Source: Escherichia phage vB_EcoM_ESCO9
Strand: one strand, 5' to 3'
Sequence record: OM386654.1
Length of the DNA: 64,000 bases
Shown here: in pieces, positions 57,350-64,000 of the stretch
Numbering within the stretch: position 1 is the first letter of the stretch
How the letters are laid out: each line of letters starts with the position of its first letter
Position numbers and translations under genes: made by a program
The notes under the pieces: generated by a model
What the model was told of the DNA's origin: nothing
What the model saw: only the letters and a program-made list of their open reading frames with translations
The model's database searches: none

Positions 57350-58081
57350 ATGAGCGAATTTGTAAACAACACCGCATTAAACTACCTGCAAACCCTCGAA
57401 AGCAATAGTGTAGATTTGATTCTTACTGACCCACCATATGCTATTTCTCGTGACACAAATTTTCAGTCTGGAGAGCCTACTGGAAAAGATACGGATAGAT
57501 TCCGTGTATCTTACAACTTCGGTGATTGGGATGTTGTAGATATTCCTTACTTTAAAGAAGTATTCAAAGAAGCCTACAGGGTGCTTAGAAAAGGTGGTAC
57601 TTGCATAGTTTGGTATGATATCTGGAAGATCCAGGAACTACGTGAAATCCTTGAACCGCTTGGTTTTCGTATGTTCCGTACCATCGAATGGATTAAAACA
57701 AACCCTGTACCCATCAACAGTGGTGTTAACTACCTTAGTAACGCTAAAGAGATGGCTATTGTTTGTGTTAAAGGTTCGAAACCAACCTTCAATGCTTCCT
57801 ACCATAAGGGTGTGTTTGAGTATCCTATCTATCAAGGAGCAGATCGTTTTCATCCAACACAAAAACACTTGACTTTGTTTTGTGACCTTATTAATATACA
57901 CACCAACGAAGGAGATGTAGTCTTAGACTTCTTCTCTGGAAGTGCAACAACACAAGTTGCGGCACTTTTAACAGGTAGAGAATACTTAGGCTGTGAAGCC
58001 GATGTAAATATTTTTAAGCAAGCGGAGGAACGACTAAATGAGTACACTGAACAGCAAAATCACCCTGAAAGCACTGATTAA
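57350..58081 (+). CDS. DNA methyltransferase (N6-adenine or N4-cytosine, DPPY type)
   Basis: LILTDPPYAI motif IV precedes AdoMet motif VLDFFSGSATT. Confidence 0.8.
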   Translation: MSEFVNNTALNYLQTLESNSVDLILTDPPYAISRDTNFQSGEPTGKDTDRFRVSYNFGDWDVVDIPYFKEVFKEAYRVLRKGGTCIVWYDIWKIQELREILEPLGFRMFRTIEWIKTNPVPINSGVNYLSNAKEMAIVCVKGSKPTFNASYHKGVFEYPIYQGADRFHPTQKHLTLFCDLINIHTNEGDVVLDFFSGSATTQVAALLTGREYLGCEADVNIFKQAEERLNEYTEQQNHPESTD

Positions 58082-58469
58082 CAATGGTATGAACCTGGAC
58101 TCTGGTCTGTCTCCAAAGATTTCTATGGCACGACTGGAACAAGTTACTGGTCTTCGTCAAGTAAGTAATGGCGGTAAGATTATTCGTGATGACGCTGTAC
58201 CTTTTAATAAGTTTCAGATTGAACGTCATTACGATCCTGTAACTGCAAGCCTCACTGGTGTAACTTTCTCAGGTTATCGTACTGCCGGATACCAGCGTAA
58301 AGTTGTAGCTGAACGTATTAAGAGTCGCAAACAGAAAATTGCGACATTGAAGAAACTGGTAGAGAAAGATGTTTCAGAACTTCTTAACCTGTATGAAACT
58401 CTTGAGACAAAAGGTGAAGATCATAAACTCTTCTCTAAAGAAGATGTAAGCGTAATTTTCACTGATTAA
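58038..58469 (+). CDS. hypothetical protein
   Basis: GGAGG RBS 9 nt before ATG 58038; overlaps methyltransferase 3' end by 44 nt in another frame. Confidence 0.5.
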   Translation: MSTLNSKITLKALINNGMNLDSGLSPKISMARLEQVTGLRQVSNGGKIIRDDAVPFNKFQIERHYDPVTASLTGVTFSGYRTAGYQRKVVAERIKSRKQKIATLKKLVEKDVSELLNLYETLETKGEDHKLFSKEDVSVIFTD

Positions 58470-58475
58470 GATAAA

Positions 58476-58506
58476 AGAAAAGGAGCCTAATGGCTCCTTT
58501 TTGTTT
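58476..58506. terminator. bidirectional terminator between convergent genes
   Basis: aaaggagcc-taat-ggctccttttt, T-rich on both strands. Confidence 0.65.
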
Positions 58507-60391
58507 ATGTAACATTGACTGTAAATCTGACAAGAGGTGATAACACGTCATTATCAGCATCATAGTGTGCAACATCAAACACTGTTGTACCTGCTGCAAA
58601 TCCATATTGTTCAACCTGATCTGCATAAGTAAATGTGTAAGTGTTAGTATCCAGGGTTTGTTCTGTAAGAATTGCTGCTGTGAGGACGTTTACATTTCGG
58701 AAGTAATGTTTAGTATATCCTGCTGGTTCCCAAGAGACAATTGCATCTTGGTTAGCTTGTCTTACAGCGGCTCCTCCTGTTGGAACAGACATATCAACCC
58801 AAACAGGTGACGCTGATGTTAAGTCTGTACCGTCTGCTGCCGATTTAGCAAGTTTTGTAGCTGCTGTTTGATATACAGAAGAAATATAATGGATACGACC
58901 ATCAATACCTTCTTCATAAACATAACCACTGTAACGTTCAGCACCATCTACCCAAGAACCAATTATAACATCATCACGTGCTGTAGAGATGGTTCTTTGT
59001 ACATTTCTGTACTTCTGCCAATCCACACCATTAACTTCTACACCATATAAATAAGAACGTCCTAGGATCTGCCAAACAATTTTTGCTTGAGAAGCAGGAA
59101 CTATTGTACGCATCTTATCAAAGATAGCTATCGTAGCATCATGGTAACGTGTAGTGTTACTGTACCTACCTGCAACAGTCGAAGATGCTGATACAGCATC
59201 ATTTTCACCTTGTCCCCAAATAATTGCTTTAACCTTACTTGCATAAGGTGTGACTTTAGTGATAAAGTTAGTTAAGCATGGCCCATCTGCTGTGTTATCC
59301 AGATCATACCAGTAGTTGTCTGGTGTTCCTGTTCCGGCTTTATCATCTGCATATTTATCTGCTGCTGATGATCCAGAAGCTGCATTTAACGGAAGAACTT
59401 CAGCATTTGCTAAACCACGTTGCGTAGCATATGCATTACGGGCTGTTGTGCTACTCATTGCTGCTTTATTTGCACCAGATAGTTCTGTAAAGTGTGCATT
59501 TACGTTATCTTGTCCAGCAAAGACAATAACTTCTTTAATGAATGAATCATCTGTAGCTATTGAGCTATTAAAGATAACGGCTGCTGCTTTGGTGCTCTTA
59601 ACGCTAATTTTAAGGTATGTTGGAGCAAACCCATAAAGAGGAATAGAGTCAGAGATATCAAAGTAGGCGTAAGTATTTGTGGTTGTTGTAGTCCACTGGA
59701 CACTATTATCACTTAAATCTAATACTTCTACAGTATAAGTATCACCATCTAGCGGATCAGTTACATCCCAAGCAACACGAACGTCTCCATAACTGTTTGC
59801 CACGGCTGTTACATTAGAAATAACAGGAATAGCATTAACACCTAAATAAGAACTATCAGAGGCCACAACTGTTCCTTGATACGTTGCAGTACAACCTATA
59901 CGGCAATTACCATCTTTAAGAGCAGTTATTAATCCTGTAGGGCTTACAGTAGCTACTTCTGGATCTGTTGTGGTGTACGTAATTACCATGTCTGGAAGAT
60001 CTTTAGCACCTTCTGGACTGATTGTAGCAACCAACTGTTGAGTAGTGCCTACATCCATAGCTGATAGACTTTCAGTGTACACGCTTAATTCTGAAGCATA
60101 ACCACCAGATTGATCAGTTAAGACAGCACCTAAATTATTTTTAGCTGTCATTATTGCATCAAAACCACCTTCGGCAACAAACTCCATCATACCACTATTA
60201 TCTATAACCATTTTGGTATTATCTGAAGATGAAAAAGCTATATCAAATAACGCACCATCTTCCGGTGAAACTGTGTATGTCAGTTGCTTTTTACTACCAA
60301 CTATTGCAATACCAATAGAGGAAGTGGTTATAGATGTAGCTGTTACTACTGAAGCTGATGTTGTTGACATAAATAAAGGAATAGGATACAT
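58505..60391 (-). CDS. tail fibre / receptor-binding protein with Ig-like domains and SASA-type carbohydrate esterase domain
   Basis: BIG2-like TVSPTGLITALKDGNCRIGCTA; esterase-like VFAGQDN and IIWGQGEND. Confidence 0.6.
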   Translation of the reverse strand: MYPIPLFMSTTSASVVTATSITTSSIGIAIVGSKKQLTYTVSPEDGALFDIAFSSSDNTKMVIDNSGMMEFVAEGGFDAIMTAKNNLGAVLTDQSGGYASELSVYTESLSAMDVGTTQQLVATISPEGAKDLPDMVITYTTTDPEVATVSPTGLITALKDGNCRIGCTATYQGTVVASDSSYLGVNAIPVISNVTAVANSYGDVRVAWDVTDPLDGDTYTVEVLDLSDNSVQWTTTTTNTYAYFDISDSIPLYGFAPTYLKISVKSTKAAAVIFNSSIATDDSFIKEVIVFAGQDNVNAHFTELSGANKAAMSSTTARNAYATQRGLANAEVLPLNAASGSSAADKYADDKAGTGTPDNYWYDLDNTADGPCLTNFITKVTPYASKVKAIIWGQGENDAVSASSTVAGRYSNTTRYHDATIAIFDKMRTIVPASQAKIVWQILGRSYLYGVEVNGVDWQKYRNVQRTISTARDDVIIGSWVDGAERYSGYVYEEGIDGRIHYISSVYQTAATKLAKSAADGTDLTSASPVWVDMSVPTGGAAVRQANQDAIVSWEPAGYTKHYFRNVNVLTAAILTEQTLDTNTYTFTYADQVEQYGFAAGTTVFDVAHYDADNDVLSPLVRFTVNVT

Positions 60392-60400
60392 TTAATCTCC

Positions 60401-60428
60401 TTAAATAATAAGCCCCCGAAGGGGCTTT
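60401..60428 (-). terminator. terminator-like hairpin between tail genes
   Basis: Minus strand: aaagcccc-ttcg-ggggctt then attattt; followed by AAGGAG RBS. Confidence 0.5.
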
Positions 60429-60430
60429 GA

Positions 60431-62392
60431 TTATGTGCGTTTAGCAACAATAGCATCTACGTAATCGCCAACACCACAATATGTTAGTTGTAGTATTGTT
60501 ACTCCGTTAGGATCTGTATTAATATCACTAGAACCAATTACTTTGTAAGATGGATCTAAAGTAACAGTACGACCTCCAGTGGCATCTTGGATAAGATAAA
60601 CTATTGCAGAGAATGGTTTAGGTTTTGTGCTATCTTCGACACCAGGCCATGCTTTTATAGTAGAGTTACCAGTAAGATTCAACACATTCATGTTATGTGT
60701 TCCTGGAGGTGTCCAGTCACCTGTAACAGAGTTGTTGGTGTATGCTGTAACCTCTATAAAATTAGTTGTTACTTTTGTTGGAACTATATCTTGACCATCT
60801 ACAGAACTAGTGAGTTCTTCCCATGCTCCATCTTTACGAGCATAGATCTTACCGTCACTAGGTGCATCTGTGATGCTAGGCAGTGTACCTTGAGAAGTCC
60901 AGGCAGTTGCAGATGTTTTTAAGAACACCTCACCAGTGGAGATATTAAAGGCATAATCACCTTGTTTACCATCACTAGAAATTGGATCTGTTGTTTTAAC
61001 AATCCAAGTTGCACCGTCTGTACCGTTAGTACCAGCGTCACCTTTTTCACCCTTATCACCTTTCAAACTACCCATATCTACATATTCAGCAGTTTGAGTT
61101 TGTTCATCATAGGTGTAAATGTAAAGATGACCTGTATCTTCCGTCAGATAAGCATCACCGTAATTGGCTGTAGGAGGAAGTGCACTTGCAGACGCAACGT
61201 GTCCTTTTGCAGTGATTGGAGTACCAGCTAAACGACCAACATTTGTCCACTGTGTGGCTCCTTGCAACCAAACCCAAAGTTCATTATTGATCAGATAACC
61301 ATCACCATCTTCTCCAGTTTGTGGTAGTTCAGAAGTGTCAGTCAGAATATCAATAATTGTCAACCCTGCACCAGTTGGCCCCGTCAAGCCTTGTATACCC
61401 TGCTCACCTTGATCACCCTTGTCTCCCTTATCACCTTTTTCTCCTTTCAGAGAGGCAATATATTCATCAATAGTACCAACGTTACCAGCATTTAACCAGA
61501 CTTGATAAGCAGAATCACCAGTGTTACCCTTATCTCCTTTGTCGCCTTTATCTCCTTTTGGCCCCACTATAGCGCCCATATTGATCCATTCTACACCGTT
61601 TGACACGTATAGATATGTACCAATACTCCATGCTTGAGATGTGTTTCCAGGAGATGCAGAAGGAAGATCTGAAACAGAATTAGCTGCACCTTGGTAATCA
61701 AAACCATTAGCATTATTACCTGGTACACCTTGTGGCCCCTCTGGGCCAGGTTCCCCTTTATCACCTTTAATTGAAGCAAGATAATCTAGTTCTGTACCTT
61801 CATTTCCTGCTGCAAGCCATACTTCATAAGCAGATTTACCTTCTGGCCCCTGTGAGTTTACTTTTCTCCAAGCAGTGCCATCCCAAGCATACATATTCTC
61901 GCCTACAATCCATGCGTCACCTGCATTGTTTCCAGTTGTAGGTAATTGGTTGGTATTAGACAGCGTTCCTAATAGCTTTAATGGAGCACCTGGATCGCCT
62001 TTTAAAGAAGCCAACCACTCTGCCTCAGTACCTTGGAAACCATTGTCTACGGCAATCTGGTAAGCTGATTTACCAGCTTCTGGAATGGACTCTCTAAGAT
62101 CTTCAATTTCAGCTTCAATAGCATCTAATTCTGATTCTATTTGAGCAATGTCATCTGCATTACCCACATTTTTCCAAGCTGTATCTGAAATCCCTCCAGT
62201 AGATGTAGGAGTAGAGTTAGCAGGTACAACTTTAGGTAGAGAACCTTTCCACTGATAGTAGTTACCGTCAGTTTCAAAGAGCAATGCTTCACGAGCATCT
62301 CTTAAGGTAAAACCACTTGCAAAACTTCTACGCTTTCTATAGCGAGACTCTACCATGTCTGCAATGGCACTATTTGGACGTGTTAAAATCAC
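60431..62392 (-). CDS. tail fibre protein with collagen-like Gly-X-Y tracts and tandem fibre repeats
   Basis: GDKGDKGDKGNTGD, KGEKGDKGDKGDQGEQG; three repeats of SAYQ..W...G..GTE..YLASLKG; GTG start. Confidence 0.8.
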   Translation of the reverse strand: MILTRPNSAIADMVESRYRKRRSFASGFTLRDAREALLFETDGNYYQWKGSLPKVVPANSTPTSTGGISDTAWKNVGNADDIAQIESELDAIEAEIEDLRESIPEAGKSAYQIAVDNGFQGTEAEWLASLKGDPGAPLKLLGTLSNTNQLPTTGNNAGDAWIVGENMYAWDGTAWRKVNSQGPEGKSAYEVWLAAGNEGTELDYLASIKGDKGEPGPEGPQGVPGNNANGFDYQGAANSVSDLPSASPGNTSQAWSIGTYLYVSNGVEWINMGAIVGPKGDKGDKGDKGNTGDSAYQVWLNAGNVGTIDEYIASLKGEKGDKGDKGDQGEQGIQGLTGPTGAGLTIIDILTDTSELPQTGEDGDGYLINNELWVWLQGATQWTNVGRLAGTPITAKGHVASASALPPTANYGDAYLTEDTGHLYIYTYDEQTQTAEYVDMGSLKGDKGEKGDAGTNGTDGATWIVKTTDPISSDGKQGDYAFNISTGEVFLKTSATAWTSQGTLPSITDAPSDGKIYARKDGAWEELTSSVDGQDIVPTKVTTNFIEVTAYTNNSVTGDWTPPGTHNMNVLNLTGNSTIKAWPGVEDSTKPKPFSAIVYLIQDATGGRTVTLDPSYKVIGSSDINTDPNGVTILQLTYCGVGDYVDAIVAKRT

Positions 62393-62408
62393 TTTACTAC
62401 TCCTTTTA

Positions 62409-62429
62409 TAAAGGGGCTTTCGCCCCTTT
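62409..62429. terminator. hairpin, terminator-like
   Basis: aggggc-tttc-gcccct flanked by A and T runs. Confidence 0.4.
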
Positions 62430-62433
62430 TTAA

Positions 62434-63963
62434 TTAAGCATTATTGACAGTAACAAAAGTAACAGGGTTCAGAGCTTTAATTTGTGTATTCTCTGCTGTA
62501 GGTGTTACAATTGGATCTGCAATATCTATTGTGTACAAACTATTTGTCACATATGTAGCACGTGCTATAGTTGTCACAAGATCGCCGCCATTTGCACCTG
62601 CACCTGGAATAACAATCTTAGTACCTGCTGCTTTAGCGTAGCCATTACTAGCCCAGTTTAAAGCATTAGACTGTAGATAGGTTTGACCTGTAACAGTTGC
62701 TTTTATTTTCTCGTTGGCACTAAAGAAAGCACCACCTACTGTAACAACATGTTTTTTACCGCTTGCACAATGAATAACTGTTCCAGTAGGGAATTCACGC
62801 CCACCTGGGAATTCATCATAAGCTGTAAAATATTGTTCAGAGATAGTAGTTAAAACTGGCCCACGATGACCTGTTCCATCAACAGCAGTTGGAACACCAA
62901 AGTTATTTCCAACCTGATCGCAACGATCCGTGTAGATTTTAGCAAAAGAAACTGTTGTTTCATCTCCGCTAAGTGCTGTACATCCTACCCACTTCATATA
63001 CGTGAATTGGCTGCGAGTATAGAAACCGCCACCACTTCCTTCTCCGCTTCCGTGTTGACCAATAAAGTCAATACTACGGCAACGAATATTATTAAAGGTA
63101 GAGCTAGATGGTAGCCCACGCCATTTAAAAACATTACAATTGATATTACTAACAATTGTAGAGTTTTCCCAGTCATCTGATCCAGATGTTGCAATCTCAA
63201 TTGAAGATTCTGGAATATCCAAATTCTTAATTGTAAAGTTAATTGGTGGCCCCGCATATCTTCCACTGTTAACACCCCAGTCAATAAAGACCATGCGTGT
63301 TGAAACAGACGGATCATTAAGCAGATAACCAGTTAAACCATCAACTTCAAAATCTTGGCATCCGTATAATGCAACACCACAAGTAGTTAAACCTGTACCT
63401 GTTGAAACTGCTGTGTTAGGATAAACTTCATTATCACGTATTGTGAAGTTTTTACCCATTTCAACGTGTAAACATTGACGGCAATTGTAAACCCTATTCC
63501 CAACGATACTGAAATTACGTACATATTGTGAATCAGGAACATCAACACCATATGGGCCACTACCTGCTACACCAATACCAATACCCCAGTTTGCACCTTG
63601 TCCAGAAGCATCTACGTTAGCAATGTGGTTATTCTCGATAATCAAACCTTCAGTGTAGTGTTTTTGAACTACGTTAAGTTCAATAGCATCACCTTTAATA
63701 TCGTGAATATAGTTGTTAGAGTAACGCCCGTAGGTCATTACTTCTCCAGTACCTTGTTGCAGGATCGCATATTTACAACCATACATTTCGTTGTAACTGA
63801 AGTCCAACGTACCTTCACTTGTCATTGCTTGCATTAAGAATGCTGCTGTAGATGTTGCGTTGGAGAAGATATTACGATAGAATCGGCAATCGCCACCTAA
63901 CATCTTAACATAACATTTTTCAAAGCGAACGTTTTCCATCCAACAGGACACAGTAGAAATCAT
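62434..63963 (-). CDS. tailspike / depolymerase-like protein with parallel beta-helix repeats
   Basis: Repeats IENNHIANV, VGNRVYN, IRDNEVY; frame stays open upstream to the window end so the true N-terminus may lie beyond 64000. Confidence 0.6.
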   Translation of the reverse strand: MISTVSCWMENVRFEKCYVKMLGGDCRFYRNIFSNATSTAAFLMQAMTSEGTLDFSYNEMYGCKYAILQQGTGEVMTYGRYSNNYIHDIKGDAIELNVVQKHYTEGLIIENNHIANVDASGQGANWGIGIGVAGSGPYGVDVPDSQYVRNFSIVGNRVYNCRQCLHVEMGKNFTIRDNEVYPNTAVSTGTGLTTCGVALYGCQDFEVDGLTGYLLNDPSVSTRMVFIDWGVNSGRYAGPPINFTIKNLDIPESSIEIATSGSDDWENSTIVSNINCNVFKWRGLPSSSTFNNIRCRSIDFIGQHGSGEGSGGGFYTRSQFTYMKWVGCTALSGDETTVSFAKIYTDRCDQVGNNFGVPTAVDGTGHRGPVLTTISEQYFTAYDEFPGGREFPTGTVIHCASGKKHVVTVGGAFFSANEKIKATVTGQTYLQSNALNWASNGYAKAAGTKIVIPGAGANGGDLVTTIARATYVTNSLYTIDIADPIVTPTAENTQIKALNPVTFVTVNNA

Positions 63964-64000
63964 TGTTCCACCGTTACCAGTGAATGTACCACCATACCAA

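Follow-up and report, generated by a model that had tools for sequence, protein, structure and literature searches.

The terminal part of a 64,000-nucleotide (nt) stretch of DNA from Escherichia phage vB_EcoM_ESCO9 (sequence record OM386654.1; hereafter the window) contains three consecutive open reading frames (ORFs) on the minus strand at 58505-64000, with positions as given in an initial annotation of this DNA. We refer to them as gene A (58505-60391; 628 amino acids, aa), gene B (60431-62392; 653 aa), and gene C, which was listed as an ORF at 62434-63963 and has a frame that stays open to the window end (62434-64000). Plus-strand ORFs over 58505-64000 are short, and each lies inside one of the long minus-strand genes. 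We consider it probable that the locus represents phi92-type adsorption genes, i.e., a colanidase, the gp151 fiber, and gene A, whose SASA-type domain carries Asp in place of the catalytic Ser and is a likely glycan binder.

The 5.6-kb region at 58400-64000 matched more than 50 GenBank genomes of Justusliebigvirus over its full length with 97-98.8% DNA identity. Among these genomes are ZYD, muut, VEcB, Paula, and phi92; muut and ZYD have ∼98.8% DNA identity. Judged by this identity, the phage is a phi92-like myophage of the genus Justusliebigvirus. Gene order and annotation at this locus match in Paula and phi92: gene C corresponds to phi92 gp150, annotated as colanidase tailspike; gene B to gp151, annotated as potential tail fiber (Paula_0166 is annotated as Phi92_gp151 homologue); and gene A to gp152/gp153, annotated as putative tail component protein. 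The rest of the tail-fiber cluster, gp149-gp141, is located upstream of these genes and outside the window. The region would be the promoter-distal end of a tail-fiber/tailspike cluster on the minus strand. For phi92, a "multivalent adsorption apparatus," likened to a Swiss army knife, was described by Schwarzer et al. in 2012, as cited in PMC5380687, PMC8594841, and PMC10269720. A syntenic three-gene cassette for a colanidase/colanic-acid protein, a collagen-like fiber, and an Ig-like protein is present in Phapecoctavirus ESCO25 (L004 383-8242). Three 146-kb "Campylobacter phage" records with Campylobacter jejuni as host (GenBank MG065639, MG065656, and MG065689) are 98.3% identical to the window at 58400-64000, and their host labels look doubtful.

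Gene C is truncated, as its reading frame continues without a stop codon up to the final base of the window. The window holds the C-terminal 521 aa, the full-length homologue P0191 has 804 aa, and the N-terminal ∼283 aa of gene C lie beyond position 64000. In a phmmer search, the 521 aa matched residues 106-626 of the chain in PDB entry 6E0V with an E value (E) of 0. An AlphaFold2 model based on 35 homologues (pLDDT 91.5) was all-beta with short recurrent strands, and its top Foldseek match was 6e0v_A (99% identity, TMq 0.93), titled [quoted passage not shown] Weaker Foldseek neighbors were the right-handed beta-helix proteins AlgE6 and the HK620, Sf6, and CBA120 tailspikes; the homologue P0202 has a Pfam Beta_helix match and is named a parallel beta-helix protein. 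The C-terminus of gene C is a Pfam TSP_Ig-like domain. Its central part (aa 75-268) is related to WcaM with E 7e-29, below the equivalog cut-off; WcaM belongs to the colanic-acid biosynthesis cluster of the host itself. Gene C is the orthologue of phi92 gp150, a right-handed parallel beta-helix colanidase tailspike, and as such is already known. The initial annotation of this gene as a beta-helix tailspike and likely polysaccharide depolymerase was thereby borne out at the level of fold, and hydrolysis of colanic acid by gp150 at the beta-1,4 Glc-Fuc bond has been attributed to Xu et al. (2025), as cited in PMC13450770. Based on this literature on phi92 gp150, the gene C product would cut the colanic acid exopolysaccharide and thereby allow the phage to reach the cell surface. 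The kinship with WcaM is consistent with such an activity.

Gene A matched phrog_32204 ("tail protein") over its full length and is named tail protein, tail component, "tail carbohydrate esterase," or "non-contractile tail sheath" in different records. It is 99.8% identical to its equivalent in phage muut and intact at 94-99.8% identity in ∼58 other genomes. At the N-terminus, two stretches matching Pfam Big_2 (E 2e-12) make up two Ig-like domains (aa 30-187; 59831-60304, minus strand). This part also matched the Ig-like parts of major tail proteins in PHROG and shares 58-63% identity with the N-terminal region of tail proteins from Phapecoctavirus. Database proteins sharing only the Ig-like part of gene A have RCC1-type Pfam matches. 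A probable FN3-like domain follows at aa 190-275 (59567-59824, minus strand). This call is based on weak similarity to the C-terminal FN3 domain, with aa 192-257 of a homologue weakly matching the profile of the C-terminal domain as an internal match, and on a family profile in which the FN3-like module that precedes the esterase fold aligned with residues 617-716 of N4 gp65; the same stretch is deleted in phi92. The SASA-type SGNH-fold domain covers aa 280-530 (58802-59554, minus strand) and contains GQDN (Block I), G340 (Block II), WGQGEND (Block III), and His501. It is followed by a C-terminal FN3 domain (aa 535-628; 58508-58789, minus strand) with Foldseek matches to FN3 domains and a profile match to the FN3 domain of chitinase A1 (1k85). 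The profile also matched three further copies in N4 gp65, and the module is repeated several times in N4 gp65-like proteins.

Gene A itself matched Pfam SASA (PF03629) with E 0.019 and 15.0 bits, below the Pfam cut-off of 24.8 bits, and no NCBIfam model matched gene A. However, the homologues P0035, P0145, P0163, P0167, P0189, and P0117 exceed the Pfam SASA threshold, and the SASA homology of gene A is thus transitive, because its homologues pass the threshold although the window protein does not. A word-indexed search with full-length gene A returned mostly Big_2 matches and few for the esterase-like domain, whereas exhaustive searching with only aa 270-628 yielded 81 homologues. A 43-member profile matched the PDB sequences of N4 gp65 (E 2e-152), 2apj (3e-5), and 1zmb (1e-3), and its match to FN3 covered the last ∼95 residues of gene A. 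An AlphaFold2 model of aa 270-628 (pLDDT 95.9, pTM 0.91) has the SGNH alpha/beta/alpha fold. In Foldseek, it matched N4 gp65 (E 5e-25, TMq 0.80), followed by GDSL/SGNH esterases and FN3 domains, and besides N4 gp65, its closest structural neighbors are the SASA esterases 1zmb, 2apj, and NanS. The Ig-like domains and the SASA-type fold proposed initially were therefore recovered from sequence profiles and structure prediction. Gene A is the intact equivalent of the split phi92 gp152 and gp153, and it would encode a modular and probably non-trimeric tail accessory protein with two Ig-like domains, an FN3-like domain, the SASA-type SGNH-fold domain, and a second FN3 domain.

In SGNH hydrolases, the Ser in Block I is the nucleophile; the hallmark of SASA members is a Gln beside this Ser, which is held by the (H)QGE motif of Block III, and NanS is without the Block V Asp (PMC9487903). 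When the window protein was aligned with 73 homologous domains, the consensus was GQSN ... GQGE ... H, with the complete set in 29 domains and Ser in the nucleophile column in 60 of the 72 aligned homologous domains. In gene A, translation and alignment place Asp295 at the position of the catalytic Ser in Block I (FAGQDNVN); its GAT codon (59507-59509, minus strand) is two substitutions away from any Ser codon. The other hallmarks are present, i.e., Q294, G340, W-G-Q394-G-E396-N-D, and H501, so that only the Ser is missing. Gene A has the SASA-specific oxyanion-hole residues (Q294 together with Q394-G-E396); H501 aligns with the Block V His of the family, which is present in 49 of the 56 domains covering this column; and position His-3 is not occupied by Asp, which is also the case in NanS. 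Asp295 is invariant in 32 of 32 close Justusliebigvirus-type homologues (within P0001-P0036). A clade at 40-44% identity has GGDN in Block I and has kept the Asp and the His, while both Gln are lost (GGDN, SLGE). Other members from tail proteins are degenerate, with GQAN, GQMN, GHEN, or, in N4-like proteins, a degenerate second domain.

The initial annotation proposed that this domain could deacetylate an O-acetylated surface polysaccharide. With an Asp at the nucleophile position in gene A and its 32 close homologues (GQDN), and in the clade at 40-44% identity (GGDN), this proposal is weakened: the domain appears to be derived from a SASA esterase but is unlikely to be a classical serine O-acetylesterase. 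Rather, because the catalytic Ser is replaced by Asp295, we read the domain as most likely a module for glycan binding or positioning. Phi92-like phages depend on wecB (PMC8594841), and dependence on the wecB-dependent glycans enterobacterial common antigen (ECA) and NGR is on record for phi92-like phages and N4 (PMC8594841, PMC8669472). Either of these two glycans could be the ligand of gene A; another candidate is the O-acetylated colanic acid on which the neighboring tailspike acts.

In phage N4, the sheath is a heterodimer of gp64 and gp65, with gp65 as the receptor-binding protein (PMC13434306). Gene A aa ∼270-628 matched gp65 in sequence (phmmer E 9e-24, profile E 2e-152) and in structure (Foldseek TMq 0.80), and in local tblastn searches, gp65 residues 428-1062 aligned with gene A. 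Residues 55-115 and 340-416 of gp65 aligned instead with the gp142 homologue of Paula, which is outside the window, and so did residues 107-367 of N4 gp64 (E 2e-30; L001 20919-22427 in Paula and L003 6758-12192 in N4). On these alignments, gene A is homologous to the central part of N4 gp65, and the N4 sheath subunits appear to be partitioned differently in phi92-like myophages, because gp64 and the N-terminus of gp65 map to gp142 while the middle of gp65 maps to gene A. Gene A does not have the full gp65 architecture of 10 domains including the N-terminal part and the tail-plug-binding D9-D10. In the accessible literature, we found no statement linking gp65 and gene A. We had considered a "glycan deacetylase" homology between N4 and Vequintavirinae (Maffei et al. 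2021) as referring to gene A; this was dropped, as the S5F legend of that paper names N4 Gp64 and the homology concerns this protein rather than gp65. We speculate that the Asp-for-Ser SASA site is selectively maintained, either as a lectin-like pseudo-esterase for an acetylated wecB-dependent glycan (ECA/NGR) or as a new Asp-His hydrolase, and that gene A partners the gp64-like gp142 as the myophage counterpart of the N4 gp64-gp65 sheath; as a whole, this proposal is tentative and more probably wrong than right.

Several points speak against the reading of the locus outlined above. The first is that Asp295 is strictly conserved along with the Gln, QGE, and His residues, which could reflect a working, unusual catalytic site rather than a dead one. 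Gene A could then be an active O-acetylesterase that deacetylates ECA, NGR, O-antigen, or colanic acid in the manner of gp63.1 of phage G7C, with Asp295 serving as an unconventional nucleophile or general base. The invariance of Asp295 points to selection at this position; SGNH triads of unconventional type are known, e.g., from PDB 9h4u, which is titled "diluted triad"; and "tail carbohydrate esterase" is the name of gene A in some GenBank records. However, the accepted SGNH mechanism requires the Block I Ser (PMC9487903), which the large majority of the related domains have and gene A has not. Moreover, the clade at 40-44% identity has lost the oxyanion Gln and the Gln of QGE but kept Asp and His, unlike a preserved esterase site, and the related copies in phage tails include many degenerate variants (GQAN, GQMN, GHEN, and the second N4 domain). 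We therefore regard an active esterase as rather unlikely and favor the glycan-binding module.

The second point is that gene A is disrupted in phi92, a phage with a broad host range. In phi92 (L002 6001-7663), a 218-nt deletion (gene nt 591-808) and frame changes result in gp152 and gp153; 85% of gene A is covered, in three frames, and the Block I region of the SASA-like domain is in no annotated coding sequence. Accordingly, gene A is dispensable at least on some hosts and may lack a receptor role. The corresponding alternative, that gene A is a dispensable tail decoration or structural accessory with weak Ig-like/FN3 adhesion and no specific receptor or enzyme role, draws on the full infectivity of phi92 in spite of this lesion and on the N-terminal Ig-like domains, which resemble accessory Ig-like domains of siphophage major tail proteins. 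In addition, a G+C-rich hairpin, AAGCCCCTTCGGGGGCTT, with a weak T tail was detected in a terminator scan at 60410-60427 (minus strand), within the 39 nt that separate genes B and A. As a possible partial terminator, it might attenuate transcription into gene A and in this way reduce its expression. Against this alternative, the full-length gene is intact in the ∼58 other genomes, its N4 homologue is a bona fide receptor-binding protein, and some relatives add a C-terminal module that is also found in tail fibers of other phages. In alia, Paula, PaulScherrer, KMB37, and others, gene A has 939 aa, i.e., the same 628 aa plus a C-terminal module of 311 aa, which is carried by approximately one-third of the relatives and has no Pfam match. 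The junction is clean: 938 nt in Paula (L001 9104-10041) replace 5 nt in the window (58503-58507), including the stop codon. The module is present in ∼21 Justusliebigvirus records at at least 90% identity, while a few have a variant with 62-63% identity; in addition, the syntenic Phapecoctavirus protein terminates with this module, which is also part of tail proteins of Kagunavirus and RcapMu. In Phapecoctavirus, matches to gene A are confined to its Ig-like part (aa 35-220) and the 311-aa module. Altogether, a merely accessory gene A appears unlikely to us, and we retain the glycan-binding module as the more plausible role.

The third point concerns the position of the gene B product on the virion. 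Gene B matched phrog_15437 ("tail fiber protein") over its full length and is present at at least 95% identity over the full length in 55 phage records; based on sequence comparison, it is the orthologue of phi92 gp151, a collagen-like fiber. Its N-terminus is a tailspike-type domain (aa 11-77; 62162-62362, minus strand; PF18668, TSP1/Gp66 N-terminal, E 3.6e-21, 75.5 bits versus a cut-off of 25) that matched the N-terminal parts of CBA120 TSP1, TSP3, and TSP4 and of other tailspikes among the PDB sequences. N4 gp66 had no similarity to genes B and C. A heptad-rich stretch at aa ∼78-106 is predicted to form a short coiled coil. It is followed by three composite repeats at aa 105-184, 185-291, and 292-400 (aa 105-400 in total; 61193-62080, minus strand), delimited by motifs, G-X-Y runs, and z-scores. 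Each repeat consists of a SAY...LASLKG motif, a collagen G-X-Y run, and an LPxxG...W...W segment. Pfam Collagen scored 32.0 bits (cut-off, 27.2), with four G-X-Y runs of 6-9 triplets, and a Fibritin_C-like stretch was also found with Pfam. The C-terminal globular domain (aa 526-653; 60434-60817, minus strand), the presumed distal tip, matched the last 127 positions of phrog_4549 ("tail fiber protein") and is 36-56% identical to the C-termini of tail-fiber or hypothetical proteins of rV5-like, Proteus, and Yersinia phages. Gene B would thus encode a fiber with an N-terminal docking domain, a coiled coil, and a shaft built by three old, diverged collagen-triplet repeats; its C-terminal tip presumably binds a surface ligand. 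Serratia phage Kashira (L005 1637-4519) encodes a 960-aa "collagen-like protein" whose two SAY motifs and long G-X-Y stretches are homologous to the repeat region of gene B. This hints that this type of repeat module is employed outside tail-fiber clusters, too.

In the 2026 cryo-electron microscopy study of phi92, the models of gp150 and gp151 did not fit the density of fiber II, and the models of gp151 and gp140 resembled the head spike gp52 of phage Pa223 (PMC13450770). These findings would suit a head or neck fiber rather than a tail fiber, as would the location of the Kashira gene two genes downstream of the major capsid gene. However, the PF18668 domain at the N-terminus of gene B is the type that tailspikes of CBA120 and G7C-type phages have; in two genera, the gene lies inside the tail-fiber cluster between a tailspike gene and a tail protein gene; and its C-terminal domain matched tail-fiber families. 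We consider a head or neck location improbable, and a location of gp151 on the tail is favored because of the type of the N-terminal domain and the conserved position in the tail-fiber cluster.

The repeats of gene B had been described initially as three tandem fiber repeats of ∼35 aa that are also direct repeats at the DNA level and a substrate for recombination-driven variation in host range. At the protein level, three repeats are real and at the described location (61300-62050): the motif SAYxxW..G..GT..E[WY][LI]AS[LI]KG occurs in three copies starting at aa 109, 187, and 294 (∼61364-62068), and local alignment of the copies against shuffled sequences gave z-scores of 13-20, with a partial fourth copy at aa 401-470 (z ∼7). 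However, the unit is a composite of 80-108 aa rather than a head-to-tail repeat of ∼35 aa, and a BLASTP self-comparison of gene B gave only the identity match and no internal repeat. At the DNA level, repetition is weak: copies of the motif are 57-66% and whole units 44-54% identical; the longest exact run common to two units is 11 nt; and no exact direct repeat in the entire gene exceeds 14 nt, a length reached in collagen codons. Tandem Repeats Finder reported only 9-nt collagen-codon arrays, and a repeat finder reported one pair of 47 nt with 70% identity.

The proposed comparison of repeat number among relatives revealed no variation. The proteins of the window, Paula, and phi92 have 653 aa each with three motifs at identical positions, and the Phapecoctavirus orthologue, at 60% identity, also has three, at 109, 187, and 300; the repeats differ only in how long the G-X-Y runs are. 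Three paralogous tandem units, short 9-nt collagen-codon arrays, and the slight differences in G-X-Y run length between genera are what one might expect if homologous recombination still acted on the direct repeats and altered host range through changes in repeat number. The low DNA identity of the copies, with exact shared runs of at most 14 nt, the copy number fixed at three in Justusliebigvirus and Phapecoctavirus alike, and the 55 nearly identical full-length records argue otherwise. Because the DNA copies have diverged and the copy number is three across two genera, the recombination idea is unsupported, and we judge it highly improbable. Comparison of the relatives indicates that what varies in this part of the cluster is the 311-aa module of gene A, i.e., its presence, absence, or type, and not the gp151 repeats.

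A scan for terminators identified a bidirectional terminator-like hairpin at 58477-58502 (10-11 pairs with T runs, both strands), and in Paula, terminators are annotated at the equivalent position. This hairpin divides plus-strand replication genes from the convergent minus-strand tail-fiber operon. Promoter-like matches numbered 19, versus 16.2 ± 4.3 expected from shuffled sequences, and are thus not above chance; hence, no promoter is claimed. Rfam and tRNA scans of 57500-64000 revealed no family and no tRNA. On the plus strand, an ORF homologous to phi92 gp154 (58038-58469) overlaps the end of a DNA methyltransferase gene (57350-58081) by 44 nt and is annotated likewise in Paula and phi92.

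Altogether, the features described in the initial annotation are real and its domain calls are mostly right; the locus is already known and has been sequenced repeatedly. Because dozens of sequenced phages carry these genes at 97-99% identity, the finding as originally stated adds nothing new, and three distinct receptor-binding proteins is an overstatement, as a ligand is known only for gp150 and gene A is broken in phi92. The Ser-to-Asp change in the SASA domain and the homology to N4 gp65 are modest new details. For annotators, they imply that a domain named "tail carbohydrate esterase" is without the catalytic serine and that deacetylation should not be assumed. The homology between gene A and gp65, the mapping to gp142, and the 311-aa module may be useful for phage annotation and engineering.

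Among known systems, the locus is most similar to phi92 gp150-gp153, with the same order, orientation, and sequences, 99% identity of gene C to the crystallized gp150, and a gene B of the same length as gp151. It differs in that gene A is one intact 628-aa ORF here but broken in phi92, and the window holds only the last three genes of the phi92-type cluster, without the first ∼283 aa of gp150. Gene C, with its beta-helix fold and C-terminal Ig-like domain, resembles the right-handed beta-helix tailspikes of P22, Sf6, and HK620 and the CBA120 TSPs; it differs in its specificity for colanic acid rather than O-antigen, and the similarity in fold is only weak (E ∼1e-3). The SASA/CE6 sialate and acetylxylan O-acetylesterases (PF03629; 1ZMB, 2APJ, and NanS, 3PT5) are related to the central domain of gene A, which, by contrast, has Asp for the catalytic Ser, scores 15 bits versus the threshold of 24.8, and is placed between FN3 domains of a phage tail protein. 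The O-antigen deacetylase gp63.1 of G7C (PDB 4QNL), which has the canonical catalytic Ser, belongs to a different SGNH subfamily and is far more distant from gene A. With N4 gp65 (PDB 9LC0, 9YF4/5), gene A has the SGNH-like domain and FN3 modules in common. However, gp65 is longer (1382 aa) and contains a second SGNH-like domain, additional FN3 copies, and parts at both termini that have no counterpart in gene A, whereas gene A, unlike gp65, has N-terminal Ig-like domains and belongs to a contractile-tailed phage.

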